Source: Mustelus asterias
Taxonomy: Eukaryota
Assembly (NCBI RefSeq): GCF_964213995.1
Contig: NW_027590186.1
Location: 682,001 to 746,000 of the forward strand
Reading direction: 5' to 3'
DNA: 64,000 nt
Position numbers and translations under genes: made by a program. Under the pieces are notes generated by a model. It searched no databases and had not been told where the DNA came from. It worked only from the letters and a program-made list of their open reading frames with translations. Below, piece by piece: positions 913 to 58,069 of the stretch. How positions within the stretch are numbered: position 1 is the first letter of the stretch; every line of letters starts with the position of its first letter.

Positions 913-951
913 AGTTTTTGTACGAGGATTTCACTCGTTCTCATCACTGTG
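913..951 (-). other. 23-bp-spacer RSS of the V gene
   Basis: CACAGTG (951-945), 23 nt, ACAAAAACT (921-913). Confidence 0.97.
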
Positions 952-1253
952 AGACTCTGTGCACAGTAATAGACCGCAGTGTCAAACAGCCGCAGCTCCG
1001 AAATAGTCACTCGGTACAAATTGTCTGACTGCTGGACCGAATCAGAAAACCGGGTCCGAGCGAAATCCGCCTTTAATTCAAAACCGCCGTTTTTGTCTCT
1101 CCGGACTGCAAACTCGGGCTGTTTTCCTGGGTATTGACGATACCAGAATAAATAATAAGCATAGTCGGTGAAGGTGCAGTTTAAAGTGACATCTTCTCCC
1201 TCTGTCCGTGTGTGAGGATTCCCGCTGAGTAACAGAATCTCCATCGCTCAGAT
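952..1253 (-). pseudogene. TCR alpha/delta-type V exon, frameshifted in FR1 (pseudogene or assembly indel)
   Basis: Acceptor tttcag precedes 1253. The leader-spliced frame reads (D)LSDGDSVTQRESSH, but TEGEDVTLNC...YYLFWYRQYPGKQPEF...RFS...DTAVYYCAQS is in another frame; the shift lies in a CA run at ~1208-1214. Both Cys and the Trp of the V domain are present. Confidence 0.9.
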
Positions 1254-1960
1254 CTGAAACACACGGTTAAAGAAAGGAAAAAAACATTGATTAAAAGTTC
1301 AATTGAACTAAGGGAGAACATTCACTGACAGTGTAACGTAAAAATATGTATTGAATGTACTGAATCATACCACATTCTCTCCAACTGATCTATGCTCCCG
1401 TTTACAATCCCCTGGAGATTCTTCCCTCTCGCCTCTTCTCAATGCATTTGTCCCTTTCTTCCTCAGCTGTTTAGCTGAGTTTACCTTTAAATTAGTCTTT
1501 GCTCCTCTCCTCAAGTGTTCACTGTGTTAATATGAGTCACATTCTACCCAACTCTTTCTAAAGCTGTTTCTCTCCGATTCCCAGTTGATCTCATTGTTTC
1601 ATTGGAATTGTGGGACATATGTTTGGAATCCTCCCACAAGTGGAATCATCCCCTCCCCGTCCACCACACCAATCCTCGTTATCATTATAAATAGATCAGT
1701 CAGATTTGCGTTAGTTTCTTTGGTCAGTCGAGAAAGTAATCATAATCTTGCATTCTGATAGCTCTCATCTCCCAATCCGAGTACCATTTCTCGAAATCGC
1801 CTTTTCAGTGTGCTTTTCGAATCTATTTTCAAAAGACTAAAACCACTCGCAAGAATTCATTTGTGTTCTACAGCATGTCCAATACCTGTATAACATGAAT
1901 GTCCTGCTTTTCAACTTTATTCCTCCAGAAAATAACTCATTTTTAAAGTGTTAAACTCAC

Positions 1961-2006
1961 CAACAATGAATGTCACCCAGATCAGAGTGAAAACGGGGAG
2001 CCGCAT
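1961..2006 (-). CDS. Leader exon of the V gene (MRLPVFTLIWVTFIV-)
   Basis: ATG at 2006-2004, 15 hydrophobic codons plus G, then donor gtgagt; phase-1 intron to 1253. Confidence 0.9.
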
Positions 2007-2044
2007 TGCTGCTGCTCCTGGATTCCAGGGACTTGTTTCTCCGA

Positions 2045-2105
2045 CAGCTGCAGAAGGTTGAACAAGATAAAGCTGAGAGCATTGGCTGTGGCTGATCTGA
2101 CGTCA
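2045..2105 (-). promoter_or_regulatory. V promoter elements: CRE TGACGTCA, GATA, E-box
   Basis: Perfect TGACGTCA at 2098-2105, ~90 bp upstream of the leader ATG; AGATAA 2065-2070; CAGCTG 2045-2050. CRE motifs are typical of TCR V promoters. Confidence 0.65.
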
Positions 2106-2581
2106 CACCCTACAGAACCTATGGTCGGAAGAGTGGAGATCACTAAATAGAGAATAAAGAGCTGATTGGATACCCCAATCTATAAATTGGTTTATTCCTG
2201 ACAGCGTCATTAGGCGATATCCAATAAGCTCCTGGGCTCTTTGCTCTGGATTCATCCAATTGGCTGAGAGCTCCTTTCTGCTCTAATTCATGACAGTAAG
2301 AACTCTCACAACACCAGGTTAAGGTCCAACAGGTTTATTTGGTAGCACAAGCTTTCGGAGCGCTGCTCCGAGAATCAGACAAACTGGGAGCATCAGCTCA
2401 GTACAATATATTTTCAGCATTCTTAATATCGCAATCCGTCAACAGTATAAAATTTTAGAAAATGCTCATTAGAATGCATGCCTCTATTTCAGGTTTTATT
2501 TCTCTCATTGTTTTTCTGAATGAAATAACTGAATATTGTTTCAAAAGATGTAAAGGAAGAATTGTCTTGGGTTTGGATAAA

Positions 2582-3005
2582 CTTGATTTGATTTGATTTA
2601 GCATTTTCACATACACTGGTCTACAGTGGAAAGTATTGTTTCTTGCATGCTATACAGACAAAGCTTACTATACATAGAGAACATAGGGGAGAAGGACAGG
2701 GGAGGGTGCAGGATGCAGTGTTACAATTAAAACCAGGGTGTAGAGAAATAACAGCTTAATGTATGGAAGATCCATTTAAAAGTCCGATGGTAGCAGGGAA
2801 GAAGCTGTCCTTGAGTCGGTTGGTACGTGACCTCAGACACCCGTTTCTTTTTCCCAACGGAATAAGGTGGAGAAGCGTATGTCCGGTGTGCGTGGGGTCC
2901 TTGATTATGCCGGGCGCTTTTCTGAGGCAGCGGGAAGTGTAGACAGAGTCAATAGATGGGAGGCTGGTTTGCGTGATGGACTGGGTTTCATTCTGAACTC
3001 TTTGT
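2582..3005 (-). mobile_element. Rex1/Babar-type non-LTR 3' fragment
   Basis: IIKDPTH..H.L...RTNRLKDSFFPATI.LLN C-terminal motif; (ATCAA)n tail. Confidence 0.7.
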
Positions 3006-3312
3006 AAAGAGCAGAGATGTGGACTTATTTGGATAGCCCATGCGAAGTCCTGGCACAGGCACAATGGGTCAACAGACTCCTCCTTGTCTGTACGGTGTAC
3101 AGATCTCTGTCTGCAACTGAAGTGACTGAATTAATAACTGCTGTCGGTGCAGACCTGGCTCAGTATCGCGGTGATGATATTAATTTGGATTAACCTTTCC
3201 CGCACAACAGTCAAGAGCTAAAGGTTAACAAAATACATAGAAATAAAGAGCAGTAAAATATTAACAGGCTCCAGCCGGCCCGAGTAACCATTTTCCTGAG
3301 GAATGGATAGCA

Positions 3313-5015
3313 CCATAGAGTCATAGAGTCATAGAGGTTTACAGCATGGAAACAGGCCCTTTGACCCAACTTATCCATGCTGTCCTTTTTTTCAAACCCT
3401 GAAGCTAGTCCCAATTGCCCGCATTTGGCTCATACCCCTCTATACCCATCAGACCCATGTAACTTTCTAAATGCTTTTCAAAACACAAAATTGTACCCGC
3501 GTCTACTAATACCTCTGGCAGCTTGTTCCAGACACTCACCACCCTCTGTGTGAAAAAATTGCCCCTCTGGACACTTTTGTACGTCTCCCTCTCACCTTAA
3601 ACCTATGCCTCTAGCTTTAGACTCCCCCACCATTGGGAAAAGATATTGACTATCTAGCTGATCTACCCCTCATTATTTTATAGACCTATGTAAGATCACC
3701 CCTCAGCCTTCGACGCTCCAGAGAAAAAAAGTCCCAGTCTATCCAGCCTCTCCTTACAACTCAAACCATCAAGTCCCGGTAGCATCCTAGTAAATATTGT
3801 CTCCACTCTTTCTAGTTTAATAATATCCTTTCTATAATAGGGTGACCAGAAATGTACACAATATTCCAAGCGTGGCCTTACCAATGTCTTCTACAACTTC
3901 AAAAAGACTTCCTAACTACTGTATTCAATGCTCTAACCAATGAAACCAAGCATGCCGAATGCCGTCTTCACCACTCTGTCCACCCGTGACTTTACTTTCA
4001 AGGAGCGATGAACATGTACCCCGAGATGTCTTTGTTCTGTAACTCTCCCCAACGCCCTACCATTAACTGAGTAAGTCCTGCCCTGGTTCAATCTACCAAA
4101 ATGCATCACCTCGCATTCATCTAAACTAAATTCCATCTGCCATTCGTCAGCCCACTGGTCAATTGATCAAGATCCCGTTGCAATCCGAGAAAACTTTCTT
4201 CACTGTGTACTATGCCACCAATCTTGGTGTCATCTGGAAACTTACTAACCATGCCTCCTATATTCTCATCCAAATCATTAATATAAATGACAAATAACAG
4301 CGGACCCAGTACTGATCCCTAAGGCAAACCTCTGGTCACAGGCCTCCAGTTTGAAAAACAACCCTCGACAACTACCCTCTGGCTTCTGTCATCAACCCAA
4401 TTTTGTATCCATTTAGCTACATCACCCTGGATCCCATGAGATTTAACCTTATGCAACAACCTGCCATGCGGTACCTTGTGAAAAGCCTTGCTAAAGTCCA
4501 TGTGGACAACATCAACTGCACTGCCTTCATCTACCTTCTTGGTTACCCCTTCAAAAAGCTCAATCAAATTTGCGAGACATGACTTTTCACTCACAAAGCC
4601 ATGCTGACTGTCCCAAATCAGTCCCTGCGTCTCTAAATTCCTGTAGATCTTGTCTCTCAAAATACCTTACAACAACTTACCCACCACAGGTATGAGGCTC
4701 ACTGGCCTGTAGTTCCCAGGCTTTTCCCTGCAGCCCTTTTAAAACAAAGGCACAACATTTGCCTCCCTCAAATCTTCAGGCACCTCACCTGTGACTGTCG
4801 ATGATTCAAATATTTCTGCTGGGGGACTCGCAATTTCCTCCCTAGCCTCCTACAATGTCCTGGGATACATTTCATCAGATCCCGGGGATTTATCCACCTT
4901 GATGCGCTTTAAGACTTCCAACACCTCCTTCTCAGTAATATGTACACTCCTCAAGACATCACTATTTATTTCCCCAAGGCCCCGAACATCTATGCTTTTC
5001 TCAACAATAAATACT
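3313..5015 (-). mobile_element. CR1 LINE, older copy (continues ~6430-6570)
   Basis: Fragmented RT ORFs (SQHGF, DFSKAF, RPRLEYC); (CATAGAGT)n tail. Confidence 0.93.
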
Positions 5016-5040
5016 TCGAACATCTATGCTTTTCTCAACA

Positions 5041-6426
5041 ATAAATAATTATAGACCGGTTAGTCTTACTTCGGTGGTTGGTAAATTGATGGAAAGGGTC
5101 CTTAGGGATGGGATTTACGACCATTTAGAAAGATGCGGATTAATCCGAGATAGTCAGCATGGATTTGTGAAGGGCAAGTCGTGCCTCACAAATTTGATAG
5201 AATTTTTTGAGGAGGTAACTAAGTGTGTTGATGAAGGTAGGGCAGTTGATGTCATATACATGGATTTTAGTAAGGCGTTTGATAAGGTCCCCCATGGTCG
5301 GCTTATGATGAAAGTGAGGAGGTGTGGGATAGAGGGAAAGTTGGCCGATTGGATAGGTAACTGGCTGTCTGACCGAAGACAGAGGGTGGTGGTCGATGGA
5401 AAATTTTCGGATTGGAGGCAGGTTGCTAGCGGTGTGCCGCAGGGATCAGTGCTTGGTCCTCTGCTCTTTGTGATTTTTATTAATGACTTAGAGGAGGGGG
5501 CTGAAGGGTGGATCAGTAAATTTGCTGATGACACCAAGATTGGTGGAGTAGTGGATGAGGTGGAGGGCTGTTTAGGCTGCAAAGAGACATAGATAGGATG
5601 CAAAGCTGGGCTGAAAAATGGCAAATGGAGTTTAACCCTGATAAATGTGAGGTGATTCATTTTGGTAGGACTAATTTAAATGTGGATTACAGGGTCAAAG
5701 GTAGGGTTCTGAAGACTGTGGAGGAACAGAGAGATCTTGGGGTCCATATCCACAGATCTCTAAAGGTTGCCAGTCAAGTGGATAGAGCTGTGAAGAAGGC
5801 CTATAGTGTGTTAGCTTTTATTAACAGGGGGTTGGAGTTTAAGAGCCGTGGGGTTATGCTGCAACTGTACAGGACCTTGGTGAGACCACATTTGGAATAT
5901 TGTGTGCAGTTCTGGTCACCTCACTATAAGAAGGATGTGGAAGCGCTGGAAAGAGTGCAGAGGAGATTTACCAGGATGCTGCCTGGTTTGGAGGGTAGGT
6001 CATATGAGGAAAGGTTGAGGGAGCTAGGGCTGTTCTCTCTGGAGCGGAGGAGGCTGAGGGGAGACTTAATAGAGGTGTATAAAATGATGAAGGGGATAGA
6101 TAGAGTGAACGTTCAAAGACTATTTCCTCGGGTGGATGGAGCTATTACAAGGGGGCATAACTATAGGGTTCGTGGTGGGAGATACAGGACGGATATCAGA
6201 GGTAGGTTCTTTACGCAGAGAGTGGTTGGGGTGTGGAATGGACTGCCTGCAGTGATAGTGGAGTCAGGCACTTTAGAAACATTTAAGCGGTTATTGGATA
6301 GGCACATGGAGCACACCAGGATGATAGGGAGTGGGATAGCTTGATCTTGGTTTCAGATAAAGCTCGGCACATCATCGTGGGCCGAAGGGCCTGTTCTGTG
6401 CTGTACTGTTCTATGTTCTATGTTCT
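5041..6426 (+). mobile_element. CR1 LINE, young 5'-truncated copy nested antisense
   Basis: RT ORFs 5026-5592 and 5598-6344 with FADD; (TTCTATG)n tail. Confidence 0.95.
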
Positions 6427-6649
6427 ACTTATAAGAAATATTCATTTAGGATCTGACCCAGCTGTTGTGGATCCGCACATCGATGACCTAGTTGATCCTT
6501 AACAGACCCTACTCTCTTCCTTGTTACTCTTTTGCCTTTTATGTATTTGTAGAAGCTCTTTGTATTCACCAGTAGTTCACAATGTAGTCAACTTACTGAA
6601 GGGAGCAGTGACAGCTGTGAGGATTGTGAACTCGCAAACTGGGACGTTG

Positions 6650-7800
6650 TGCTTTTTTCCAAAAGAAAACTTATTCATAAAGTATCTGAAAGAACATTAC
6701 AAAATACTTCAAAATGGCCATAACAGCAAGTGCAATAACATTCAAGGTTTCGACAATAAAGCTATTGCACTCTGTGTATAATTAAAGGAACATTACAGAA
6801 TTTTTCAGAACGGTTTTTACAGAAAGTGCAATAACGTTTAGGTTTCGGACACAGATAATTTTGCACTCTGACGCGCTTCAACGCATTCAATGAAACATTA
6901 CAGAACGTTGCAAAATGGTCATTTCAGAAAGTGCAGTGATACTGAAGTTTTCTGCAAAGATAATGTTGCACATTGAAGAGCTTCAGTGCAATCAATGGAA
7001 CATAATACATATTTCAAGATCGTCAATACAGGAGGGGCGATGTTATTTAGGTTGTCTACATTGAACAAGTTACACTCTCAGGTGCTTCAGTAGAATTGCG
7101 AGACATGTAATATTCACTGCATTCATTCAATATGAGTCCAACAGCACGGGGCGTTCATATAGAGTTCTGCTCCCCTCAGATCACAATGGCCGAAAGGTCG
7201 CAGTTTTCCCCATTGCGCCTTTGCAGCAACTGCCCCAAGGTTTAGTGCGTCCCTCAATCGGTAGCCCTGTGCCCTGGAATGTGTTGTCTGCAACACTCGA
7301 TCGAGGACAATTCTTTGCACATGAAGATCAACTGGTTTCGGGAAGGCAAATAGTGTATTTTACCGAGTTGAAAATTCTCCAACAGCAATTGGTGCTTGTC
7401 TCGGTTTGTCCCTGGGAACAGCCCGTAGACATGATGAGGAGATGCCGGCGTTGGACTGGGGTGAACACAGTAAGAAGTCTCACAACACCAGGTTAAAGTC
7501 CAACAGGTTTATTTGGCAGCAAATACCATAAGCTTTCGGAGCGCTGCTCCTTCGTCAGATGGAGTGGAAAGCACAGAGTCCTTCGTCACGGAGTTGCTTA
7601 GGATGAACCTCGACCAATAAAAAAAGCTTCTCATCACCTCGGGATATAAATGGATAGTTTATCTGCTACGTTCGGGTTTTGTGTCTGACTCACTGACACA
7701 GTAACACACCCCAGCGCCTGATACCGATGTGCTGTCTCCATTAGGACTGGACAAAGGTCTTATTGAGTGAATGAAGAGTTTGAAGAGTCTGTGGTGTTTC
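6650..7800 (-). mobile_element. Tx1/L1-type non-LTR 3' fragment with ~100-bp diverged tandem units in the 3' UTR (6690-7100)
   Basis: LRDALNLGAVAAKAQWGK ORF2 end; four repeats starting (g/a)aacat; interrupted by the Penelope remnant. Confidence 0.6.
7526..7562 (-). ncRNA. Minimal type I hammerhead ribozyme fold in a Penelope-like repeat (7430-7570)
   Basis: CCAU CUGACGA A GGAGC-AGC-GCUCC GAAA GCUU AUGG: stem I CCAU/AUGG, both catalytic boxes, stem II, palindromic AGCU stem III. Confidence 0.7.
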
Positions 7801-9055
7801 TGCTAACAGATGAAATGACAAATTTCAGGCCACGGTTCTGTTGCATGCTGAACGAGCGGATGCTCTCAGGGCATCAGGTGATTGTATTTCATTGGATTTC
7901 AATCGATTGACACTTTTGTGTTAATATGTGCTGTGATTGAGAGATCGCAGACACTCCACCGATAATTGTCCATGCAAAAGAAAGTTGTTTTTTATGGTCA
8001 ACACTCTCCTTCAAAAATTGCTCGCTTAAAATCAAAACGTGAAGCTGCAATTCCACTAATTGCCGTTTCCTGGTTTCTGCATTCTCTCGATCCAGAATAT
8101 TAAAGGAGAATGACGTCAATGGAGGTTTAATGGAATACGTAATCATATATATTACTTCCATGGTAAATATCTTTCATATCGTCACCGAGGACAAAGAAGA
8201 AATGCAACACTGATGTGTGGTTTTCGATAAGTTGCCTTGGGACAGAATTTTCATATATCCTTTTCAGTAAAAGGCAGAATTATCTCCTTTGCTCAGCCAA
8301 CTCGGAGTTTCAAAGTCGCAAATGTTTAGCTCAGTTTCTCTCTCCACAGAGTCTTTCCAGCAATTTTCTGTTTTTATTTCAGATCTCCCCTATCATATGT
8401 ACACCTAGACATCCATTATTTCATATTGGCACCGAGAACATTCCTGTCGGTTTAATGTTGCAATTCCTCCTGTGTTTCGTTATATCCAAGGAAATGACTA
8501 ATAACGGCATTTGGTGTGGAAACTAATATTTGATATTAATGCGGGAGTGTTTGACATGTCTGTCGATATGTTGGGCGTTGGATATACATGATTTGTACTA
8601 TGTGTATTGGCTGCAAGTTGTTGATTAATCTCACTCCTTACAACAGCAACATGCATCACATTCTGGAGTACTTCCATGGAGTGGAATGTAAAATGACCAC
8701 TGGGATTTTTTCAAAGTATCAAAATATTACGATGGACCTGAGCACCAGCTGATGGTCCATTATGCGGGATATCTGTTATTGAAACCTGTAAGGGAGAGAC
8801 AAGGGAGAAATGTAGGTGGAGATATGGGAAGAAAACAAGAGGGATTGAATAATTGGAATTGGAGGCGAGACCTGGAGTTAAGCAGAGCAAGAACCGGTGA
8901 TATAAATGAATGAATCAGGAATAGATTTAGAGGAAGATACAATCAGAGAAACAGCTGCAGCAAAACAGACAAATACGAACTAAAACATGGGGAATATTTG
9001 TTCCAAGTGTTATTTTCACTCCCAGATATTTGATGCATTCTGTGTTTTGTTGCAG

Positions 9056-9320
9056 AAATAGTGATGATTCTGAATGATCAATCTGAATTAAGGGTTCTCC
9101 AAGCACAGAGCATAATGCTGGATTGTAAATACTCTCCCTACTCTGTTCCTGTATCCCAGCGAAACTCCGAGGTATTTAATGAGGATTTATAGCGCGGAGG
9201 ATGTGGAAAAATATTGCCTACTTTGTACAAGGGAACACTGTTCCTCAAATGTCACCAGGACGCTTCTCTCCGATACCGCCTTGTGTTTCTGGTGCAGAGA
9301 TCGAGCGGATCATCGCACTG
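9056..9320 (+). pseudogene. Decayed TCR V segment, inverted relative to C-delta
   Basis: Acceptor tgtgttttgttgcag ends at 9055. Across frameshifts it reads ...QSELRVLQAQSIMLDCKYS / PTLFLY.PSETPRYLMRIY ... LSDTAL(C)F(C)A. Possible leader remnant (MLQFLLCFVISK) at 8455-8491. No intact RSS. Confidence 0.6.
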
Positions 9321-15062: not shown

Positions 15063-15240
15063 ACATTTGAAAAAAAGGATGATGTTGTTGCGCAGAAATA
15101 TATCAAAATGTATGATATACTTGGCATTATGGTGACATGGCTCCAAGGTTAGCAAGGATGGGAACTAAACATTGAGGGCCATTCGATGTTGAGGAAGGAC
15201 AGACAGAAAGCAAAAAAAATGGAGTACATTGTTTCTTAAA

Positions 15241-19320: not shown

Positions 19321-19329
19321 CGGTTTCTT

Positions 19330-27020: not shown

Positions 27021-30000
27021 AACAAAGAACAAAGAACAATACAGTACAGGAAGAGGCCCTTCGGCCCTCCAAGCCCGCGCCGCTCCCTGGTCCAAACTAG
27101 ACCATTCTTTTGTATCCCTCCATACCCACTCCGTTCATGTGGCTATCGAGATAAGTCTTCAACGTTCCCAGTGTGCCCACCTCCACCACCTTGCCTGGCA
27201 GCGCATTCCAGGCCCCCACCACCCTCTGTGTAAAATATGTCCTTCTGATATCCATGTTAAACCTCCCCCCCGCCTCTCACCTTGAACCTATGACCCCTCG
27301 TGAACGTCACCACCGGCCTGGGAAAAAGCTTCCCACCGTTCACCCTATCTATGTCTTTCATAATTTTATACACCTCTATTAGGTCTCCCCTCATCCTCCG
27401 TCTTTCCAGTGAGAACAACCCCAGTTTACTCAATCTCTCCTCATAACTAAGCCCCTCCAAACCAGGCAACATCCTGGTAAACCTCCTCTGCACTCTCTCT
27501 AAAGCCTCCAAGTCCTTCTGGTAGTGTGGCGACCAGAACTGGATGCAGTATTCCAAATGCGGCCGAACCAACGTTCTATGCATCTGCAACATCAGATCCC
27601 AACCTTTATACTCTATACCCCGTCCTATAAAGGCTAGCATGCCATATGCCTTTTTCACCACCTTCTCCACCTGTGACGTCACCTTCAAGGATCTGTGGAA
27701 TTGCACACCCAGGTCCCTCTGCGTATCTACACCCTTTATGGTTCGGCCATTTATCGCATTGCTCCCCCCTACATTAGCTCTACCAAAATGCATCACTTCG
27801 CATTGATCTGGTTTGAACTCCATCTGCCATTTCTTTGCCCAAATTTCCAGCCGATCTATATCCATCTGTAGTCTCTGACAATGTTCCTCACTATCGCCAG
27901 TTCCAGCCAATTTCGTGTCGTCCGCAAACTTACTGATCACCCCAGTTACATCTTCTTCCAGATCGTTTATGTAAATCACAAACAGCAGAGGTCCCAATAC
28001 AGAGCCCTGCGGAACACCACTCGTCACAGGCCTCCAGCCGGTAAAAGACCCTTCCACTCCCACCCTCTGTCTTCTGTGACCAAGCCAGTTCCTCACCCAT
28101 CTAGCCACCTCCCCCTTTATCCCATGAGATCCAACCTTTTGCACCAGCCTACCATGAGGGACTTTGTCAAACGCTTTACTAATGTCCATAGAGACGACAT
28201 CCACGGCCCTTCCCTCGTCAACCATTCTAGTCACTTCTTCAAAAAACTCCACCAGGTTAGTGAGGCATGACCTCCCTCTCACAAAACCATGCTGACTATC
28301 GTTAATGAGTTTATTCCTTTCTAAATGTGCATACATCCTATCTCTAAGAATTCTCTCCAACAACTTCCCTACCATGGACGTCAAGCTCACCGACCTATAA
28401 TTACCCGGGTTATCTTTCCTACCCTTCTTAAATAACGGGACCACATTAGCTATCCTCCAATCCTCTGGGACCTCACCTGTGTCCAGTGATGAGATAAAGA
28501 TTTGCGTCAGAGGCCCAGCGATTTCATCTCTCGTCTCCCTGAGCAGCCTTGGATAGATTCCATCAGGCCCTGGGGACTTGTCAGTCTTTATATTCTCTAA
28601 CAAACCTAACACTTCCTCCCTTGTAATGGAGATTTTCTCCAATGGTTCAACACTCCCCTCCGAGACACTCCCAGTCAACACATCCCTCTCCTTTGTGAAT
28701 ACCAACGCAAAGTATTCATTTAGGATCTCCCCTACTTCTTTGGGCTCTGAGCATAATTCCCCACTTTTGTCCCTGAGAGGTCTGATTTTTTCCCTGACAC
28801 CCCTTTTGTTCCTAACGTATGAATAAAATGCCTTGGGATTCTCCTTAATCCTGTCTGCCAAGAACATTTCGTGACCCCTTTTTGCCCTTCTAATTCCTCT
28901 TTTGAGTTCTTTCCTACTTTCTTTGTATTCCTCCAGAGCTCCCTCCGTTTTTAACTGCCTGGACCTAACGTACGCCTCCCTTTTCTTTTTGACCAGTCCC
29001 TCAATTTCCCTGTTTATCCATGGTTCTCGAATCCTACCCTTCCTATCCTTCTTTTTTACAGGCACATGCCTGTCCTGCAGCCCTAACAACTGTTCCTTAA
29101 AAGACTCCCACATGCCAGTTGTGGATTTACCCTCAAACAGCCTCTCCCAATCAACAACTGCCAATTTCTGCCTAATCCCACTAAAGTTAGCCTTCCCCCA
29201 ATTCAACACCTTACCCTTGGGACACCACTCATCCTTTTCCATCGCTATCCTAAAGCTAACAGAATTGTGGTCACTATTTGCCACATGTTCCCCTACTGAA
29301 ACTTTGAAGACCTGACCGGGCTCATTCCCCAGTACTAGGTCCAGTATAGCCCCCTCTCTAGTCGGGCTATCTACATATTGTTCCAAAGAACCTTCCAGTA
29401 CGCATTTTACAAATTCCTCCCCATTCAGAGTCCCAGCTCTAAGCGATTTCCATTCTATACCAGGGAAATTGAAGTCTCCCACTGCAACAACCCTATTTTT
29501 TCCTGCACCTATCCAGTATCTCCTGACATATCCGTTCTTCCACTTCCCTTGGGCTGTTGGGGGGCCTGTAGTATATCCCCAACATAGTGACTGCGCCCTT
29601 CCTGTTTCTGAGCTCCACCCACAGTGACTCGTTACTCGACCCCTCTGAATTGTCCTCCCTCTGCACCGCTGTAATATGTTCTCTAACTAATACTGCTACT
29701 CCCCCACCTCTTTTGGCCCCTCCTCTGTCTCGCCTAAAACACTTGTACCCCGGAATATTCAGCTGCCAGTCCTGTCTCTCTTTCAACCAAGTCTCTGTCA
29801 CCGCAACTACATCCACATTCTTCGTAAGCATTAAGGCCCTAAGTTCGTCTGTCTTACCTGCTACGCTCCTTGCTTTGAAGTAGATGCACTCCAGACCTCC
29901 AGGCCCAGTGAGTTCATCCTCCCCCAGAGTGCTCTTCTTCTTTGCCAGCCTTGTCCTGGCCCCAAGCTCGTCCCCAGCCTCTACACTTGTAGACCTAATT

Positions 30001-30708
30001 TTTTGGTCCCCACCCCCCTGCCATATTAGTTTAAACCCACCCGAACTGCACGAGCAAAACTCCCAGCCAGGATATTCGTGCCCTTCCAATTTAATTGTGA
30101 CCCATCCTTCTTGTACAGGTGCCATCCTCTCTTGAAAACTTCCCAATGATCCAGGAAAATGAAGCCCTCCCTCCTGGACCAGTCCTTTAGCCAAGCGTTC
30201 AATTGTATTAACTCCCTATTCCTAGCCTCACTGGCACGAGACATTGGGAGCAGCCCAGCTATTGCCACCCTGGAGGCCCTACCTTTTCGCTTATTTCCCA
30301 ACTCCCTGAATTGCTCTCGTACGATCCCCCTGCTCTTCCTATCTACGTCATTTGCACCAATGTGTACAACGACATCCGTTTCTTTATCTTCCCCTTTTAA
30401 TATGCCTCCTATCCGCTCGGAGACATCCAGTACCCCAACACCAGGTAGGCAGACTACCATCCTGGAGTCCCGTTCGCACCCACAGAATCGCCTGTCCATG
30501 CCTCGAACCGACGCATCCCCCACCACTATTGCTCTCCGAATTCCTCTCTTTCCTTTCCGGGCCACAGAACCTGATTCTGTGCCAGTGACCTGGTCACTGT
30601 GGCTTACTCCTGGAGAGTCATCCTCCTCCACACTATCCAAAGCAATATACTTGTTTTGGAGGGGGACAACCACAGGTGACCCCTCCATTAATTGCTCACT
30701 AAGAGCCA
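27021..30708 (-). mobile_element. Near-complete CR1 LINE: ORF1 C-terminus (SGNH-like), APE endonuclease, RT
   Basis: ORFs 30026-30709 (IVVGD.., VVHIGAND), 29493-30194 (AVTETWL, YYRPPN) and 27257-29482 (GDFN, SDHN, FADD); abuts a + strand CR1 at 26265-27020. Confidence 0.95.
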
Positions 30709-30899
30709 AGCCTTTCCTGCTATGAGAGACTTTAAAAAATAAATTGGCTCCAATTGGCGGGATCTGCCATGGGGAGTTGGTATCCTCATGATGGGCTCAG
30801 TGGCCTCCATTTGTGCTGCGCGACTACAAGAGCTCTCTGTCAACCAAACCAAATGCATGTCTTGCCATCGCTTTAACAAAGAAGCAGAAGACACCCTTC

Positions 30900-32541: not shown

Positions 32542-32651
32542 TCAAAATAGCCACACCCTGGCCGTCATCATGACATTGAAGACAATGCTCTTGAAAAACA
32601 AAATTCTTAGCCCCATCACCGTCAAAGACAGAAAGTTCACCCTCAGTCGAT
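32542..32651 (-). CDS. TRDC: TCR delta constant, transmembrane exon: (D)RLRVNFLSLTVMGLRILFFKSIVFNVMMTARVWLF*
   Basis: Acceptor ttggcag; conserved alpha/delta TM Arg and Lys (GLRILFFKS) and N..MTAR; delta-type ending with almost no cytoplasmic tail; donor gtaagg one base after the stop. Confidence 0.95.
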
Positions 32652-33090: not shown

Positions 33091-33153
33091 CGTTTTCCGT
33101 GTCAGTTGATTCTGTCAAGGGATCATTTCGACCTGTAGGGCATTTAGGTTTAC
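33091..33153 (-). CDS. TRDC: TCR delta constant, connecting-peptide exon: (G)KPKCPTGRNDPLTESTDTEN
   Basis: Acceptor ttgcccttccag, donor gtatgt, phase 1/1, 63 nt; carries the inter-chain Cys and joins both neighbouring exons in frame. Confidence 0.9.
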
Positions 33154-35871: not shown

Positions 35872-36183
35872 CAATTTCAGCTGTGGGCGGGATGTTTACT
35901 GAGTAATTTCGATTATCGTGAAATGCCTTGCACGTGATGTTTGGCGATTCCTCGGATTGGGTGAAAGAGAGAAAACCCGAGCTCCTGTAATTCCCGCCCT
36001 CCAATAGGACACTGGGTCTTGTCACATTGACCTCCTGGCCCGATCCCGTGTACAGGGAGAGCTTGATTGTCTTGGGCGAGAAGTCCGAGGCCAAGCAAAC
36101 TGCAGCTGTGTCGATGCCGGTGGCTCCCCGTGGCACTGGCGGGTAAAAGACGCTCAATTTTGGTTCTACCAGGCCTTTCGCCT
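35872..36183 (-). CDS. TRDC: TCR delta constant, Ig C-domain exon: (K)AKGLVEPKLSVFYPP...AAVCLASDFSPK...ITCKAFH...TAEI
   Basis: Acceptor tttcag, donor gtaagt, 312 nt. C1-set domain with two Cys and no Trp; N-glycan sequons NVT, NIT, NYS. The upstream D and the TM type support delta over alpha or beta. Confidence 0.93.
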
Positions 36184-43600: not shown

Positions 43601-43688
43601 TGGGTTCTACAGTGAGTTTGGTTCCACTGCCAAAGATAAGCTTTCTGGTTGCATAGTTTGCACAGTGATTCCAGATGGTACAAAATCG
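43601..43688 (-). CDS. TRDJ: J-delta NYATRKLIFGSGTKLTVEP (coding 43660-43601) with 12-RSS
   Basis: FGxG motif; donor gtaagt; CACAGTG 43661-43667, 12 nt, ACAAAATCG. Confidence 0.95.
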
Positions 43689-44448: not shown

Positions 44449-44526
44449 TTGGTACAACTGTCACCTGGGTGCCGCTGCCGAACGTTAGCTTTGCGTAGCA
44501 CAGTAACAATTGCTCAGACAGAAACC
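44449..44526 (-). CDS. TRDJ: J-delta YAKLTFGSGTQVTVVP (coding 44498-44449) with 12-RSS
   Basis: FGSG; donor gtgagt; CACAGTA 44499-44505, 12 nt, ACAGAAACC. Confidence 0.95.
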
Positions 44527-50100: not shown

Positions 50101-50395
50101 TTTTCCTCGGATGGTGATAGCTAGCACGAGGGCACATAGCTTTAAATTGAGTGGTGATAGATTTAGGACAGATGTCAGAGGTAGGTTCTTCACTCAGAGA
50201 TTAGTGAGGGCATGGAATGCCCTGCCTGCAGCAGTAGTGGACTCGCCAACATAAAGGCATTTAAATGGTCATTGGATAAACATATGGATGATTTTGGAAT
50301 AGTGGAGGTTAGATGGGCTTTAGATTGGTTTCACTGGTCGGCGCAACATCGAAGGCCGAAGGGCCTGTACTGCGATGTAATGTTCCATGTTCTAT
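47115..50395. mobile_element. Triple nest: CR1 (+) > CR1 (-, 47499-48996) > HE1 SINE (+, 47998-48325)
   Basis: TSD TCAAGAA at 47492-47498 and 48997-49003; SINE TSD AATA(C/T)GG at 47992-47998 and 48323-48329, with poly-A. Confidence 0.92.
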
Positions 50396-50546
50396 CTTTC
50401 TGAAGTACATTTTACGGACAGAATGCCTTCACTTGTATTTCATGTAATACTTTGTATCGTTGCCCCGGTTGCTATTTGTCAGACACAATATAGCGAAAAA
50501 ATAATCGACATGAAACATAATGAGAGTAACTTCCAATCGTACTCAC

Positions 50547-50624
50547 TTGGCACAACTGTCAACTGGGTGCCGCAGCTTCACAGTATAGTCATAATGTATA
50601 GTATAAAGGGCACAGACATAGACC
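50547..50624 (-). pseudogene. Pseudo-J (DYTVKL / GTQLTVVP; FG codons deleted)
   Basis: Donor gtgagt intact; internal frameshifting deletion; heptamer decayed to TATAGTA, 12 nt, ACATAGACC. Confidence 0.8.
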
Positions 50625-50797
50625 TTCCATTGGAGTGAAGTTGCAGATGTCGTTTAGTAATGATGAAGCATACTCATTAATTCGGAGGCAGGGGAATATA
50701 CAAAGTTCACATGAGGGTGAGCCCTTGAGAACCTTTAAGGAAAGGTCAATTACTTATGTTCCAACCAGATCCAAACTGACGTTTTCAAATGTCTTAT

Positions 50798-50874
50798 TGG
50801 GTCGTAAAGTGAATCTGTTGCCTCTGCCAAAGACAAGTTACAAAGTTCTGGTGCCAGCAGATCTGTACACAATG
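50798..50874 (-). pseudogene. Pseudo-J YRSAGTRTL*LVFGRGNRFTLRP
   Basis: FGRG; in-frame TAA; donor mutated to ATAAG; heptamer CACAATG at 50868-50874, poor nonamer. Confidence 0.8.
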
Positions 50875-51401
50875 GGACAAAAAACTAAACCCAACCACAT
50901 GAGCAGAAGAATGATGTATTTATATTATATTTCTCCTAAGTTTGAGTTTGAATTCAATTTCAGATTTTGCTGACTTCAATAGCCAGGGCAGGTTATATCC
51001 ACGTAAAAATATAAATGTCTCCCCCCTCACTTCCCACCCATTTGAACGTAATAGGTCAATAAATTATTTACTTGCATCGTGTAAAAAGGAACTTTGAGGG
51101 AAAGAATGGTCAGAAACTTAATGCACTTGCTAACTTCAAGTAGCCATTGGCCACCACACTCCCCACAATCTCTGCACAGAATGGAAATGTTTTGTCGGCA
51201 GGAATGGAATAATACACACAACACATGGACCAGTGCAGCAGGTTCAAGCAGGCAGCTCACCACTGCCTTCCACATTGAGGGACAGGCTATGTAAGTGCTG
51301 GCCTAGCCAGCAATGCCCATTTCCTACGCAATAAAAAAACGAGGTAACTTCAGTTACTCACACTCTAACCAGGTCCAAACTGAAAATTTAAAACGACTTA
51401 T

Positions 51402-51490
51402 TGGGTTGCGCAGTGAATTTGTTTCCTCTGCCAAAGATAAGATTCAAAGTTCTGGTGCTAGTACAAAATGCGGCAAAAAGTACAAACACC
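51402..51490 (-). pseudogene. Pseudo-J TSTRTLNLIFGRGNKFTAQP (paralogue of 50798)
   Basis: FGRG; donor ATAAGT; heptamer CAAAATG, 11 nt, ACAAACACC. Confidence 0.82.
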
Positions 51491-51760
51491 TGAGCAGAAA
51501 TATAAGATTTATTTATATTTTATTTATCCTGAGTTTGAGTTTTGAGTTCAATTTCAGATTCTGCTGACTTCAAAAGCCAGGGCAGGTTATATCCTGAAAT
51601 AAATATGTTCCCCCCATCCACCAATTTACATTTAATTCCCACTCCTTGCCTGTTAGCTCCATATGTCATATATTTCTATCCACTTTACAATCTCAGCAAA
51701 TATGGTTCAGATTTTCTGTAAATGCAGGGTGAGACCATTGCACGTTGTGAGGATGCATGC

Positions 51761-51827
51761 GAGGTTCCACAGTGAGTTTTGTTCAAGTACCAAGGATCGG
51801 ACTTTCAGTTGTGGGGATGACACAATC
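51761..51827 (-). pseudogene. Pseudo-J IPTTESPILGT*TKLTVEP, RSS split by a CR1 insertion
   Basis: LGT* replaces FGxG; donor gcatgc; heptamer CACAATC 51821-51827; spacer and nonamer displaced to 52432-52452. Confidence 0.82.
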
Positions 51828-52430
51828 ATAGAGTCATAGAGTCATAGAGGATTACAGCATGGAAACAGGCCCTTCGGCCTAACTTGTCTATGAAGCCTTT
51901 TTTTAAACCCCTAAGCTAATCACAATTGCCTGCATTTGGCCCATATCCCTCTATACCCATCTTACCAATATAACTGTCTAAATGCTTTCTAAAAGACAAA
52001 ATTGTACCTACCTCTGGCAGCTTGTTCCAGACATTCACCACCCTCTGCGTGAAATAATTGCCGCTCTGGACACATTTGTATCTCGCCCCTCTCACCATAA
52101 ACCTATGCCGTCTAGTTTTAGACGTCCCTACCTTTGGGGAAAGATACTGACTATCGAGCTGATCTATACCCCTCATTATTTTATAAACCGCTAAAGATCA
52201 CACCTCAATCTTCTACACTCCAGATAAAAAAGTCCCAGTCGATCCAGCCTCAAACGATCAAGTCCCGGTCGCATCCTAGTAAATCTTTTCTGCACTCTTT
52301 CTAGTTTAATAATATCCTTTCTATAATCGGGTGACCAGAATTGTACACAGTATTCCAAATGTGGCCTTACCAATGTCTTGTACAATTTCAACAAACCGTC
52401 CCAACTCCTGTATTCAATGTTCTGGCCAAT
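51827..52430 (-). mobile_element. 5'-truncated CR1 inserted into a J RSS
   Basis: (CATAGAGT)n tail; RPHLEYCVQFWSP; TSD CAATCAT. Confidence 0.9.
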
Positions 52431-53049
52431 CATGGAAGATGCTACACAAACCCGTAACTCCCGTGCTGACAGTATTGCAAGAGGTTGTTTTTGACCTGCT
52501 TGACCTGGTGATTTGACCATAGATTGGGATTCAAATTGTAATGCCAGGTGATCTCCAAAGCAAAAATGCAACTATTCCTCTCCCTGAAATCCATCCCCAT
52601 TTAACCCTTTTGCTTTATTTGCTTTACTCTATTTCAAAAAGTACAAGACATAGCTAGCAGTTTAACTTTCCTTCCATGCAGTTTCAATTAACTTCTGTAT
52701 ATTCCCTGGCCCTGTTGTTCCTCCCAAAATACATCAGCTTACACTTTTTAGAGTTAAATTTCAATTTTCCACTGCTCTGCCCATTTGACCAGTCCTTCAA
52801 TATCGACCTGTAATGTAAGGCTTTCCTCCTCGCTATTTACCACACCACCAATTTGTATATCATCTACGAATTTACTGATTATATCCTCTGGATCTCTATC
52901 GTTATAATTAATTATCTAATGATACATAAATCCATCGAACAGCTTGTTTTTAATTTTAAGCGTTACTTTCCCTCTTTGTCACCATTCGCCAGACATGGAT
53001 TCTGCAGAAATATCCATCGAAGGGTAAAGAGAAATCACCTGGCACTTAG

Positions 53050-53142
53050 TTGGCACAACATTCAGTTGTTTCCCGTAGCCAAAGATGAGTTTATAAGTAC
53101 CGTCATAGTAATGAGCACCGTGAATAGTGGCCAGCAGAAAGC
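53050..53142 (-). pseudogene. J HYYDGTYKLIFGYGKQLNVVP with dead splice donor
   Basis: Open frame with FGYG; donor is CTAAGT; CACCGTG 53116-53122, 11 nt, GCAGAAAGC. Confidence 0.85.
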
Positions 53143-53774
53143 TACCAGTGCATCAGCTCATTCAGATTCCATCCAGTATACACAGCAACACTGGCATAAT
53201 CACTGATGTCAGTGGGAGCCTCGACAACTGCCATGGTGTGCGAATGGTAAATCTTAAAAATTATCTATCGCCAAGAGATGAACAATGCATCTGATAACAT
53301 TCTACAAAGCTAAGCACATCCAAGGCCAAATTTAAAGCCAAGTTACCTCTCTGCACCGACTGGTGCATTTAGGCAGAATTCTTCTGCCTTCAGTGATAGC
53401 TATTTCTGGAACACGTCGCTCGACTTTTGTGAAGGGCTTAGAGCTTGAGAGAGCCATACTACATATCAAGCGTTGCTGAGCAGGAGTCTCCCTCTCACTC
53501 CCAATCTTTGGCAGCGTTGCTTTCTCACCTTCCTTGTTCATCAAGTCCAAGGGTAGGGACTCGGACCCGGCGTTTCTAGCTCAGAGGTAGGGATTCTAGC
53601 CCATTGCACCACAAGACCTCCCCAAGTTATGAATGGCCATTATATTGCATCTCCTCCCTTTAAGCCTGTACTGATTTTTTTTAAAAACACGACTTGGTGA
53701 TATGTTTGGAACTGTAAATATTGATTGTCATCCTACTGTAAATAGATCATGGTGGAAGATAGTTGAGGACTTAC

Positions 53775-53831
53775 TGGGCTCCACAGTGAGTTTGGTCCCT
53801 TTGCCAAAGGCAAGCTTCTCAGTTCAGTAGT
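53775..53831 (-). pseudogene. Pseudo-J (YY*)TEKLAFGKGTKLTVEP
   Basis: FGKG and donor gtaagt intact; 5' in-frame TGA; no CAC heptamer upstream. Confidence 0.85.
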
Positions 53832-55392
53832 AACAGCTACTACAAAATATAGACCCAGCCATATGAACACAGGGCTAGCTCACATTCAGTTTGTATCATG
53901 TCACTTCTTTTAATTAGCTTCTCTCCTGAACCAAATATAACCGTTCCCTCCCTCTCCCTCACACTTAGCTCCCACTGTTTTTTTGACTATATCAGGGAAC
54001 AATATTTGGATAATGAATTGACTGTGTTTCACAATTTCCATCTTCACCGGTACTTCTCCCTGAACACCCAGGAGACACAAATCCTAGGAAAATAGTTTGA
54101 CATCAACACATACGAACATGCAAAGTGGGAGCCGGAGTAAGGCACTGGGCCACTCCAGCCTAACCGCTATTCAGTAAGATCATGACTGATCTGATTGTAA
54201 CCTCACCCCCAGATTCCTGCCTACCCCCGATAACCGTTTATCCCTTGTTAATCAAGAATCTATCGAGCTGTCTTTAAAATAATCAAAGGCCCTGTTCCCC
54301 CTGATGTTTGAAGAAGAGAGATGACGAGACTCACTACTCTTTAAGAGAGAAATAAGTCTCCTCATATCTGTCTTTAAAGGAGTGACCCTTTAATTTGAAC
54401 TATAACACCTCGTTCAAAACATTAACTTGTTGTTGATAATCGTTGACCAACACTTCACTTTGAGGCCTCATTTCAAGCGTGCATTCGTGTCAGCGGTTTA
54501 ACAAATACCGGAGACCATAGGACGACGGGGCAGACGGATGCCATTTGGCCCATCGGTCATTCAATGAGATCATGAATTATCTGATGTGATAATTCTGAAT
54601 ACCTCTTTCCTGTTGTATCCTCGTAACCCTCGATTGCCCTGTGGGTTAAAAATCTGAACATTCAACCTGTACAGCGCTCTGCGGCAAATGATTCCACAGA
54701 TTCACTGCTGGCTTGAAAGAAGAAAATCTTCATTATATAAATGGGCAACCCCATACTTTGGGATTATGACCTCTGGTCCTACAAGAGGTAATAACGTCTC
54801 AGCATCTAACCTTGTCATGTCCCCTGAGAATCCAATAAGTCTCAATAAGGTCACATCGCATGCTTCTAAACTCCACTAAGTACAGGCCCAACATACTCAA
54901 ACTCTCCGAAAAAACATATCCATACCTGGGATCAAAGTAGTGGCCTTCCCTGAACTGCCTCCAATGCCAGTATAGATTTCCTAATGTTAGGGAACAGTGT
55001 TCCAGATGTGGTCTAAATCGTACCTTGTATAGTTTTAGCAAGATTATTAGTTTTAACAAAGACAAGCTTGAAAATGAAATATATGTAGATAATTATTCAA
55101 ATCAGTGGGCATTTGACTCAACCTGCTAAATGGGCATTTTCTATCCTATTTGTAACCCAATTTCAGTTCGATGTCACATCACTGATGCCTAATGTTTCAA
55201 CTGGTGTTGATGACACGGCTTAATAAACAGTGAGCTGAACTCGATACTCGGTGCCTAATAGCTTAATTGATTGGTGCAATGGCTTCTCCTTCATTTCAAG
55301 CACTGCCTTGGCTCTTTATCGGCCTTTCACCCGACACCATTCAGCAGAAATCTGTATCTAATAGGAGGAGATGAAGGTGGACTCGCACTTAC

Positions 55393-55483
55393 TTGGCACA
55401 ACCTGCAGTCGGGTGCCGCTGCCGAATATCAGTTTTTCAGTATCAGCATTATACACACAGTGACTATTGCCCAAGCAGAAAGC
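55393..55483 (-). CDS. TRDJ: J-delta YNADTEKLIFGSGTRLQVVP (coding 55455-55393) with 12-RSS
   Basis: FGSG; donor gtaagt; CACAGTG 55456-55462, 12 nt, GCAGAAAGC. Confidence 0.95.
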
Positions 55484-55949
55484 TTCCACTGGGGCAGGCC
55501 ACAGAGACTTCAGCTATTTCAAAACCCTGGGGAGTACATGCTCACTTAGCATAATTTTATGACCGATCTGCCCTCAAAACAGATGCAACCGATTAAATAG
55601 CAAATTAGAAAGAGACAATTCTGGATAAACTGTGTACGTGTGGCAGCACGTGTAGAGAGAGAAACAAAGCTAATAATCCTGCGATCCCGGGAATCAGTCT
55701 GGCATTAGGAAATATTGTTTTCTTTTTTTTAAAAGTTGGATCACTATTCTTTGAAGTATTGTGGTATCAATAGTTGGTACGTGTGAGATACTTAGTTGTG
55801 TGAGGAACTTCTTTATGTGCAAGTGGAAAAGGACACATTCCTTCATCATTGTATAATTCATCAGGTTCGTTTGTCACAATGGCAAATTTTCTCCCCACTT
55901 TTGCAATGAGGCCAAAAACTTCTGAGTGCAAAATGAATCTTCTCAAATT

Positions 55950-56285
55950 CATAGATCATAGAATCCCTACAGTGTAGAAGGAGGCCATTCGGCCCATCGA
56001 GTCTGCACTGACAACAATCCCACCCCAGGACCTATCCCCACAAATTTATCCCACTAATCCCTCTAACCTACATATTCCCTGACACTAATGGGCAATTCAG
56101 CATGACCAATAAACATAGCCCGCACATCTTTGGACTGTGAGAGGAACCAGAGAATCTGGCGGAAACCCACGCAGACACGGGGAGAACGTGCAACCTCCAC
56201 ACAGACAGTAACCCAAGCCTGGATTCGAACCTGGATTGCTGGAGCTGTGACGCAGCAGTGCTAACCACTGTGTCACCGTGTCACC
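55950..56285 (-). mobile_element. HE1-type V-SINE
   Basis: Same head, core and tail as the other copies. Confidence 0.85.
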
Positions 56286-56314
56286 CGTAATTGATGCCAA
56301 TAGATTCTACTCAC

Positions 56315-56406
56315 TTGGCTCCACGCTCAATTTGGTTCCACCACCGCATATTAATGGTCTGTAAGAAGCACGAGCGTACACTACGATTACTCTCCATGTC
56401 AGAACC
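56315..56406 (-). CDS. TRDJ: Atypical J (open frame) YARASYRPLICGGGTKLSVEP (coding 56378-56315)
   Basis: CGGG replaces FGxG; donor gtgagt intact; weak RSS CACTACG 56379-56385, 12 nt, GTCAGAACC. Confidence 0.8.
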
Positions 56407-57716
56407 CAAAGACAGGGAGCATGCATGCCAAAATTCAAAAAGGGCTTTAGTCATTGCTCAGGGCAGTTAAGCAGGTCTCGCTACAGAATACTATTTCCTG
56501 CAGTTTGTTTGGATCAAAAGTTAATCAGAAACTTTTACAATCTTCCAAGTCATCCATCTCTTAATTTCCCAGGAAAATAAGTCAGAGCGTGACTGGCTGG
56601 GAGTTCTCAATGTACACATCCAAGCGCGGTAACACGTGTCGAGAATTCCATGGCTCACTTTCGAACGGAATTTTCAAATCCATACAAAAATGCTGCTTTT
56701 GGGATTTCGTTCAGAATTGGAACTAAAGGAAATCTACACCATTGAGCCCCAACCCACCCCCTCCCCTCAATCCCAACTCACCCCACCTTTATAAGTGTAA
56801 CTTAGAACTGTGATTTTGATGCCAGAAGGCTGCATAGATGATTGTAGTCCTAATTCTGGGTTCCATTGAAATAGGTAACACAAACATGACTTTGCATTTC
56901 AGACAGGTTCCCTACCACTAGAATTCATACACAATAATGGATTCATTTGCACACTGAAGTGATATTTGAAATATTCTTTATTCATAGTCTGAGGGCAAAG
57001 ATTCATAAAGTCAGAGAAGTCCACTGCACAGAAAACGCCTTTCGGCCTATCATGTCTCCGCCAGTCAAAGACAAACCAAATAACTATTCTAATCCCATTT
57101 TCCAGCACTTGGCCCATTGCCGTGTATGATATGACATCACAAATGTATATCTAAATACTTCTTAAATGTTGTGAGGGTCTCGGCCTCCATCACCATTTCA
57201 GGCAGTGAGTCCCAGACGCTCATCACCCTTTGGGTCAAAATGTTTTCTTCACATCCCCTCTAAATCTCCTGCCCCTACCTTAAATCTATGCCCCTGGCTG
57301 CTCTCTGCTCACTCAACTAAAGGGAAAATTATCTTCCTGTCTTCTCTATCTATGCCCCTCATTATGCTGAAGGGCTTTTTCCAGTGCTGTCTCCTTCTAT
57401 GACCCTATGACTCTATCGTGGTGAGTATCTTCCAGATATCTATCGAGGTGCCACTTACTTGTACTACACACAGCCAGATCATTGACATATCTCCCTGTTG
57501 GCAGCACACTTGTGTTGTCATGATAGAGGCCAGTTAAATGTTTAAAGAAAATACTTCGGAAAATCTCAATGCCCAGTCAAGCTACGCTTCAAATTCCCAA
57601 AGATCCCTGCTCATCCATAAAACAACAATGATCATTAAAATAATTGTATGTCTCAATTAAGTCACAGGGGGCAAAATAACATGAAGAGAGAACATTATCC
57701 AGGATTAGTTACTTAC

Positions 57717-57804
57717 TGGGTTCCACAATCAGCCTGGTCCCGTTGCCAAAGATGAGCTTAGCCTTTTCATATGTTGCACAGAGTTTGATCCCGTAACAAG
57801 ATCC
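57717..57804 (-). CDS. TRDJ: D-proximal J-delta TYEKAKLIFGNGTRLIVEP (coding 57776-57717) with 12-RSS
   Basis: FGNG; donor gtaagt; CACAGAG 57777-57783, 12 nt, ACAAGATCC. Confidence 0.95.
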
Positions 57805-57986
57805 ACTGGGGTCCCGTTCACCACTCTCTCTCTCTGTCCTGTGTCTGACTGATTTGATTAGGGCTGGGTCAGACCAGTAATAGGATAAACTCGGTCAACA
57901 TCACGGTGGGGTTGGGAGTCAGCGGCGGGGAGTGGGCTGAGAGGGGTGCTATTGAGAGAGGTTGGTGAACTCCTGTGAGGCTGGGA

Positions 57987-58069
57987 GGTTATTGTACGGG
58001 CGTTGAGGGAGATTCAGCTACTGTGGTCCCACGTAGCCCACCACAGTGATACATGCCAGAACAAAAACT
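57987..58069 (-). CDS. TRDD: D-delta GTGGGCTACGTGGGAC (58041-58026) with 5' 12-RSS and 3' 23-RSS
   Basis: On +: GGTTATTGT 57987-57995, 23 nt, TACTGTG 58019-58025, 16-nt D, CACAGTG 58042-58048, 12 nt, ACAAAAACT 58061-58069. Open in all three frames (VGYVG, WATWD, GLRG). Confidence 0.96.

Follow-up and report, generated by a model that had tools for sequence, protein, structure and literature searches.

The 64,000 nucleotides (nt) analysed here (the window, positions 682,001 to 746,000 of contig NW_027590186.1 of Mustelus asterias, called C154 below) carry on the minus strand the diversity (D), joining (J) and constant (C) elements of a T cell receptor (TCR) delta gene, followed by an inverted, decayed variable (V) element and by a second V in the orientation of the core (Table 1). 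Positions are those of the window unless a contig, designated by C and a number, is named. This order had been read from the letters in an earlier note and is confirmed by the coordinates, as is its statement that no J flanked by a recombination signal sequence (RSS) lies between C-delta and the downstream V.

The D element is flanked by a 5' 12-RSS and a 3' 23-RSS, and J elements carrying a 12-RSS and the FGxG motif follow, as in a TCR-delta locus. One doubly flanked D was found in the window, against a mean of 0 in 100 sequences simulated with its dinucleotide composition, and the three 12-RSS and two 23-RSS that come near the consensus compare with simulated means of 0.07 and 0.03. Eight J-like elements were found between 57776 and 43601, four of which are intact, meaning that they have a 12-RSS with at most three mismatches, an open frame and a GT donor; the other four miss the donor, the RSS or the frame. 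Three additional 12-RSS-like sites (39751, 55500 and 59135) were discarded, as neither a J nor a D lies behind any of them.

The C region consists of a C1 domain of the immunoglobulin (Ig) type, a connecting peptide with a cysteine and a transmembrane helix with an arginine and a lysine, all three residues being those expected of the C region of TCR-delta. It is 49–54% identical to six C-delta-like proteins of other sharks versus 33% to the C-alpha of its own genome, the split between delta and alpha has a support of 100/100 in the protein tree, and a profile of shark C-delta-like proteins retrieves from three batoids proteins that bear the name 'T cell receptor delta constant'. Judged from its sequence, the C region of the window is therefore C-delta. 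The alternative assignment to C-alpha, suggested by NCBI names and by alpha-like Js, was ruled out by the identity to C-delta, the profile and the tree. Among named proteins, NCBI models with the label Mustelus asterias come closest (84–98% identity), and the best match outside Mustelus shares its description with the catshark gene IgWVTCRD (PMC12227049, Table S1), a correspondence by name and not by accession. A search of the PDB with C exon 1 returned generic Ig C1 matches only. About 2 kb behind C-delta, at 27257–30796 on the minus strand, lies a nearly full-length non-LTR retrotransposon with an open reverse transcriptase frame of 809 amino acids, presumably of the CR1/L2 type.

Table 1. 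Elements of the delta unit in the window and related features elsewhere in the assembly
Feature	Position	Strand	Remarks
Downstream V, 23-RSS	913..951	-	0 + 1 mismatches
Downstream V-alpha/delta exon	952..1253	-	frameshift from 2-nt deletion near 1207, stop at 1080
Downstream V, leader exon	1961..2006	-	contig of a relative splices 1961 to 1253
Inverted decayed V-alpha/delta-type pseudogene	9055..9300 (approximate ends)	+	present behind C in 7 of the 8 other units read
C-delta transmembrane exon	32542..32651	-	Arg and Lys, stop codon
C-delta connecting-peptide exon	33091..33153	-	has cysteine
C-delta exon 1 (Ig C1 domain)	35872..36183	-	open, AG/GT ends; one of 19 assembly copies
J-delta 8 with 12-RSS	43601..43688	-	intact
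J-delta 7 with 12-RSS	44449..44526	-	intact
Four defective J-like elements (near 53808, 53083, 51435, 50831)	50798..53831	-	without RSS, GT donor lost, or stop codon
J-delta 2 with 12-RSS	55393..55483	-	intact
J-delta 1 with 12-RSS	57717..57804	-	intact
D-delta, 3' 23-RSS	57987..58025	-	1 + 1 mismatches
D-delta, 16 nt	58026..58041	-	all three frames open
D-delta, 5' 12-RSS	58042..58069	-	heptamer 0 mismatches, nonamer 1
NARTCR cassette and supporting V	C154:773462-767604	-	leader, NAR-type V, D, J, then supporting V; strand as window unit
Supporting V fused to D-delta	C850:36291		own junction
Supporting V (broken) fused to D-delta	C401:873		own junction
Supporting V fused to D-delta	C436:213728, C119:553681, C96:1455106		one common junction
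Broken field V fused to D-delta	C71:11023780 (11.02 Mb)		
IgH-type leader, V and 23-RSS, then 12-RSS and IgH-type D fused to D-delta	C138:217701-218640		

Copies of the delta unit, their cassettes and their joints

C exon 1 has 19 matches in the assembly at 90–100% identity, and the transmembrane exon has 19 as well, at places that correspond to those of exon 1. The region of D and J1 adjoins 18 of these copies, the contig of the nineteenth ending before it is reached. In all 19 copies exon 1 is open and has AG/GT ends; 14 distinct exons occur, and the 3.3-kb loci around C are distinct in every case (0–16% apart). Three copies share the 20.4-Mb contig C71 (7.14, 11.04 and 12.27 Mb). The first of them lies in a stretch (C71:7.082–7.173 Mb) that is colinear with the window unit over about 97 kb, reaching 2.3 kb past the left edge of the window and 31 kb past its right edge, with blocks mostly 96–98.7% alike (about 96–99%). 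A misassembly between the V and C-delta, which the earlier note had named as a possible objection, or a misjoin in the order of C, pseudo-V and V is excluded by this second, colinear contig. Near-identical units can nevertheless differ in what surrounds them: C154 has the V block behind C and its close partner C181 is without a V in 110 kb, and C850 has both a fused supporting V-D and the V block, the copy at C71:12.27 Mb neither. Judging from these sequences, at least 10 loci would remain even if every close pair were allelic.

The oldest copies are 9.6% apart in exon 1, 2% in the transmembrane exon and 16% over the 3.3-kb locus, as would be expected if selection keeps the exons. Between the younger copies on C154 and C138, the changes in exon 1 mostly alter residues. 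A twentieth, partial unit with a D and two Js was seen at C973:94307–96923, with no C in the next 34 kb. Among sequencing runs of relatives, run X1 gave for the C region one contig of 605 nt holding exon 1 only, and two other organisms (B and C) showed several exon-1 variants among their contigs, where contig depth does not equal copy number.

The sequence upstream of D, on the right of the window, contains a pair of broken VH-like Vs, an odd V-like exon and, in addition, a NARTCR cassette that is complete. The signals of its V (22-bp RSS), D (12/12) and J (23) at C154:773462–772116 are compatible under the 12/23 rule, and the supporting V (C154:767905–767615) is leaderless, open in frame and provided with a 23-RSS upstream of the delta D-J-C. 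A unit is thus read as NAR-type V, D and J, a supporting V without leader, a pair of pseudo-VH-like Vs, D-delta, the J array and C-delta, with field Vs in both orientations behind it. A NAR V and a supporting V lie upstream on the same strand in 15 of the 17 units whose contigs reach that far (nine read directly, six from match coordinates alone), which gives in these units the repeated V-D-J-V-C order known from TCR-mu. Each of the 15 cassettes precedes its own D-J-C-delta by 4–41 kb, and in four the supporting V is already fused to D. The domain order of a two-V NARTCR chain was seen in predicted NCBI models only.

Some details of these cassettes are recorded for completeness. Behind the supporting V of the window unit its 23-RSS is duplicated head to tail with a 61-nt spacing (C154:767604–767420). 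The V-like exon, 15 kb right of the window (C154:761288–760977), is open in frame, carries extra cysteines together with a degenerate signal of 23 spacing, and occurs in 16 copies at 93–100%; no leader was seen for it within 190 nt. The genome also has, near 1134100 on C90, a NARTCR D fused to J.

A junction with trimmed ends, carried in the genome, has replaced the 5' signal of D-delta in 7 of 18 units, five different junctions (V-D or D-D) being involved, and in six units, with four different junctions, a V exon is fused to a D-delta that has kept its 3' 23-RSS. In the hybrid unit on C138 the IgH leader and V look intact, the IgH-type D is fused to the 3' half of D-delta, and a J-delta array and C-delta follow; its IgH-type part is 77% alike over 993 nt to a VH-DJ cluster on C154. 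We infer from the form of the junctions and from the 12/23 rule that these joined units arose through RAG acting in germ cells.

The V gene behind C-delta and the alpha loci

The earlier note implies that the downstream V is intact. It is frameshifted, as two nt are missing near 1207 that are present in all 17 other parsed copies of its family and also in contigs from two related organisms. In detail, 18 of 30 fetched loci of this family could be parsed, 14 of them open and four broken, with the deletion in the window copy only; this deletion may be a true lesion of a pseudogene or an error of the consensus. The family has 161 first-look candidates in the genome, of which 40 were scored, and it occupies dozens of places in both orientations. 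A member on the strand of the unit lies 27–35 kb behind C in 13 of 17 assessable units; three of the other four have a different V-like piece with a 23-RSS on that strand, and one is without any V in 110 kb. On C119 the identical type of V block is also found upstream of the unit, in inverted orientation. The downstream V is thus likely an ordinary member of a V-alpha/delta field of mixed orientation, as is described for other sharks (PMC12227049, section 6 and Table S1), co-duplicated with the unit.

In a related organism (run X5) one contig splices a leader of this family to a V of the family, and another passes from the end of a family V to the 3' end of D-delta, followed by the 23-RSS of the latter. 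The latter joint, seen in one contig as a loose end of 30 letters, may be somatic or inherited; it shows that the family can be joined to delta and is not reserved for alpha. With regard to the window copy, the coordinates and the 12/23 rule bear out the earlier argument that a coding joint with its own D and Js could form only on an excised circle of about 43–57 kb, a geometry that is right but probably of no consequence; as written, the frameshifted V serves nothing. The partner proposed for it, a J-alpha or a second D-J-C to the left of the window, was not found: the 230 kb at C154:452001–682000 are without a J-alpha array or a C, and no match to C-alpha or to a second C-delta was obtained anywhere on C154. 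All that this stretch contains is a pseudo-VH, an orphan VH-DJ and, at C154:681217 and 679798, two Vs in inverted orientation. The orphan (C154:652383–651460) consists of an IgH leader and V, a 23-RSS and a fused D-J, with no C in the next 200 kb.

C-alpha is represented by two exons (C546:240140 and C71:18419385) that are 84% alike, neither with a near-identical second copy. They are preceded by 83 J motifs on C546 and 22 on C71, and both arrays open with the same pseudo-J. No C-delta was found upstream of the first J-alpha element in gap-free stretches of 121 kb (C546) and 136 kb (C71), so the canonical nested arrangement, with one D-J-C-delta directly before J-alpha, is absent here. That a C-delta might be hidden in the gap of 200 Ns on C546 was considered and dismissed, since the first J-alpha element, common to the array on C71, lies upstream of that gap. 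Two D-delta remnants with 15-bp 3' spacers stand just before this element (C546:113594–113676 and 120768–120851), possibly as the scar of a formerly nested delta.

The three delta units on C71 lie 6–11 Mb upstream of J-alpha (18.37 Mb) on the same strand. A V-alpha join in this layout would delete only those units that lie between the V in question and J-alpha. As delta is present in many copies and not nested before J-alpha, alpha rearrangement need not remove all of it. The earlier conclusion that delta survives alpha rearrangement is thereby upheld, but not the route through this frameshifted V; taken together, the observation made in the earlier note is partly confirmed and its interpretation partly supported.

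Proposed cluster organisation and the alternatives

We put at roughly 0.75 the probability that the D-J-C core in the window belongs to one of 19 assembled TCR-delta units situated apart from J-alpha, likely a self-contained cluster, and that the V downstream of it is a frameshifted member of the V field, likely carried along by segmental duplication. TCR-delta would, as the best reading of these data, be organised in Ig-like clusters resembling the mammalian TCR-mu. In a T cell, RAG would join the NAR V-D-J and the supporting V-D-J within one unit by ordinary deletion, and splicing of both joined parts would yield a delta chain with two V domains. Field Vs upstream at any distance, VH-like Vs and the about 70 other NARTCR-like cassettes would also reach the D of a unit. 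The V behind C would not be used by its own unit; intact sister copies would serve J-alpha arrays or units that lie further downstream. The wider proposal is that in a shark lineage TCR-delta has changed from a nested translocon to a multi-cluster system like that of antibodies, with at least ten expressed NARTCR-D-J-C-delta units that stand apart from J-alpha, some of them pre-joined by RAG in germ cells and including an inherited hybrid of IgH-V and TCR-delta; this seems to us evenly balanced between true and false.

Several findings weigh against a system of working clusters. Half of the J elements in the window are broken, and so are the VH-like Vs upstream of D. Several copies are only 0.0–0.7% apart over 3.3 kb and 16 of the 19 lie off the 20-Mb contig, so that some of the 19 may be alleles. 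In young copies exon 1 has diverged at least as much as its flanks (4.2% versus 2.2% for C154 and C138), and purifying selection is therefore not shown there. The protein tree separates delta from alpha but resolves neither the 19 copies as one clade nor the order of their branching, and no transcript of this species was found, as the run records list no RNA run of it. In addition, about 70 more NARTCR-like cassettes (76 and 70 first-look candidates) have no adjoining C-delta, which implies that long-range, translocon-like joining must also occur and that the units are not strictly closed.

One alternative is that the copies are real but passive segmental duplicates within a repeat-rich antigen-receptor complex, one or two C-delta being transcribed within a single scattered translocon. 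Most copies are indeed so young (1–2.4% over 3.3 kb) that open frames cannot prove use, neighbouring pseudogenes have been copied along, and many cassettes lack a C of their own. This explanation is nevertheless unlikely, given that the frame and splice ends of exon 1 are intact in 19 of 19 copies, including three whose surroundings have diverged by 10–16%, and that compact units with an in-frame fusion of supporting V and D persist at 10% divergence (C436 versus C119 and C96). That the copy number is an artefact of uncollapsed haplotypes or misjoins, the true locus being a single delta nested before J-alpha, is very improbable. The closest pairs and the many copies on contigs of 0.03–2.6 Mb could be read in that way, but a diploid has at most two alleles per locus as against 19 distinct locus sequences, three of these share one contig, near-identical pairs (C154/C181 and C850/C71:12.27 Mb) differ in their neighbours, and C-alpha in the same complex is not doubled likewise.

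The two remaining alternatives concern the downstream V itself. It might be dedicated to a partner immediately beyond the left edge, either a J-alpha array or another D-J-C cluster, in a chicken-like layout; its orientation is right, its 23-RSS is near-perfect, and an intact sister V at C71:7.17 Mb does lie upstream of two delta units and J-alpha on the same strand. With neither a J array nor a C in the 230 kb to the left, a frameshift in the window copy, a family dispersed over dozens of places in both orientations and a member of it joined to D-delta in a relative, there is little room for such a role, and we hold it to be very unlikely as well. Almost negligible in our view is the possibility that the V joins the D and Js of its own unit and that the coding joint is expressed from the excised circle. 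Such a joint is permitted by the 12/23 rule, and leader, V, J and C would all be present on the circle; however, excision circles do not replicate, the V of the window is frameshifted, four of 17 units have no V of its family, and ordinary partners are available upstream in all 17 assessable units.

Comparison with known receptor systems

The organisation proposed for the delta units, namely clusters apart from J-alpha, can be compared with published loci as far as the accessible parts of the papers cited here describe them. Shark TCR loci are described as translocons (PMC12227049, section 6; PMC6795676), and in the catshark and the stingray one TCR-delta C gene is listed directly before TCR-alpha on selected scaffolds (PMC12227049, Table S1). 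The present units agree with the elasmobranch TCR alpha/delta complex (Flajnik et al. 2025, PMC12227049) in an orthologous C-delta, in a VH-like V just upstream of D, and in NARTCR cassettes, IgM clusters and V-alpha/delta exons of both orientations that are interleaved over megabases. They differ from the catshark and stingray by 19 D-J-C-delta copies and two alpha arrays, neither of which is preceded by C-delta. As in the NARTCR described before (PMC5931798, PMC6795676, PMC3457774), a NAR-type V-D-J precedes a supporting V that has a 23-RSS but no leader and joins the delta D-J-C; unlike in those descriptions, 15 cassettes each stand before a D-J-C-delta of their own, the supporting V being pre-fused to D in four.

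The closest likeness is with TCR-mu, whose V-D-J-V-C clusters number eight in the opossum, nine in the devil and five in the platypus (PMC7615758, PMC3457774). Common to both are a delta-derived chain with two Vs made from repeated clusters and, in marsupials, a supporting V joined in the germline. TCR-mu is, however, a separate mammalian locus with VH-related Vs and is considered convergent with NARTCR (PMC7615758, PMC3457774). In the present units C is C-delta itself, several Js occur per unit, and what is joined in the germline is V to D, with a 23-RSS remaining for the join to J; no separate C-mu lineage is seen, as the C groups with shark C-delta and the Vs are NAR-type and delta-type. 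By analogy, the units would thus work like TCR-mu without being TCR-mu.

Shark IgH miniclusters (PMC6795676) likewise consist of many dispersed, near-identical units with their own V, D, J and C and with partial germline joints including VD-J. They have one V and one J, whereas a delta unit has an array of Js and can receive Vs from outside. The minicluster composition of one V, two to three Ds, one J and IgH C exons is not that of the delta units, each of which has a J array and a TCR C. A delta that is not nested in alpha, together with duplicated alpha loci, is also reported for newts, galliform birds, flounder and alligator (PMC12698447), with one or two extra loci there versus 10–19 here; the delta of newts lies on other chromosomes, whereas at least three units here are on the contig of an alpha array. 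TCR Vs joined in the germline occur in marsupials (PMC7615758) and a newt (PMC12698447), and one NARTCR model of the white shark is marked as joined (PMC12227049, Table S1).

A literature search by title and opening of the abstract returned no report of multiple shark C-delta clusters, although central NAR-TCR papers, which could mention several, were outside its reach; the accessible parts of PMC5931798, PMC10787021 and PMC3964593 give no C-delta count. In the sevengill Heptranchias perlo two different C-delta-like models (P0010 and P0014) were seen, one of them preceded by a NARTCR-type J and a supporting V, which suggests that smaller duplications of delta occur in other sharks.

Taken by itself, a single V behind C-delta is ordinary, and the interest of the locus lies in the cluster organisation around it. 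The standard view separates translocon TCR from cluster Ig in sharks (PMC6795676, PMC12227049), a division that 10–19 delta clusters would break. The fusion of an IgH V to D-delta on C138 resembles the somatic trans-rearrangement between Ig and TCR genes in the nurse shark, as if fixed in inherited DNA. The delta units open the way to tests of the way in which a T cell with many clusters settles on a single receptor, of whether the choice of the alpha-beta lineage needs deletion of delta, of RAG action on TCR genes in germ cells and of the origin of TCR-mu-like clusters from delta. If the multi-cluster reading is true, this shark lineage would have an independent counterpart of TCR-mu, and its T cells would need a cluster exclusion like that of shark B cells.

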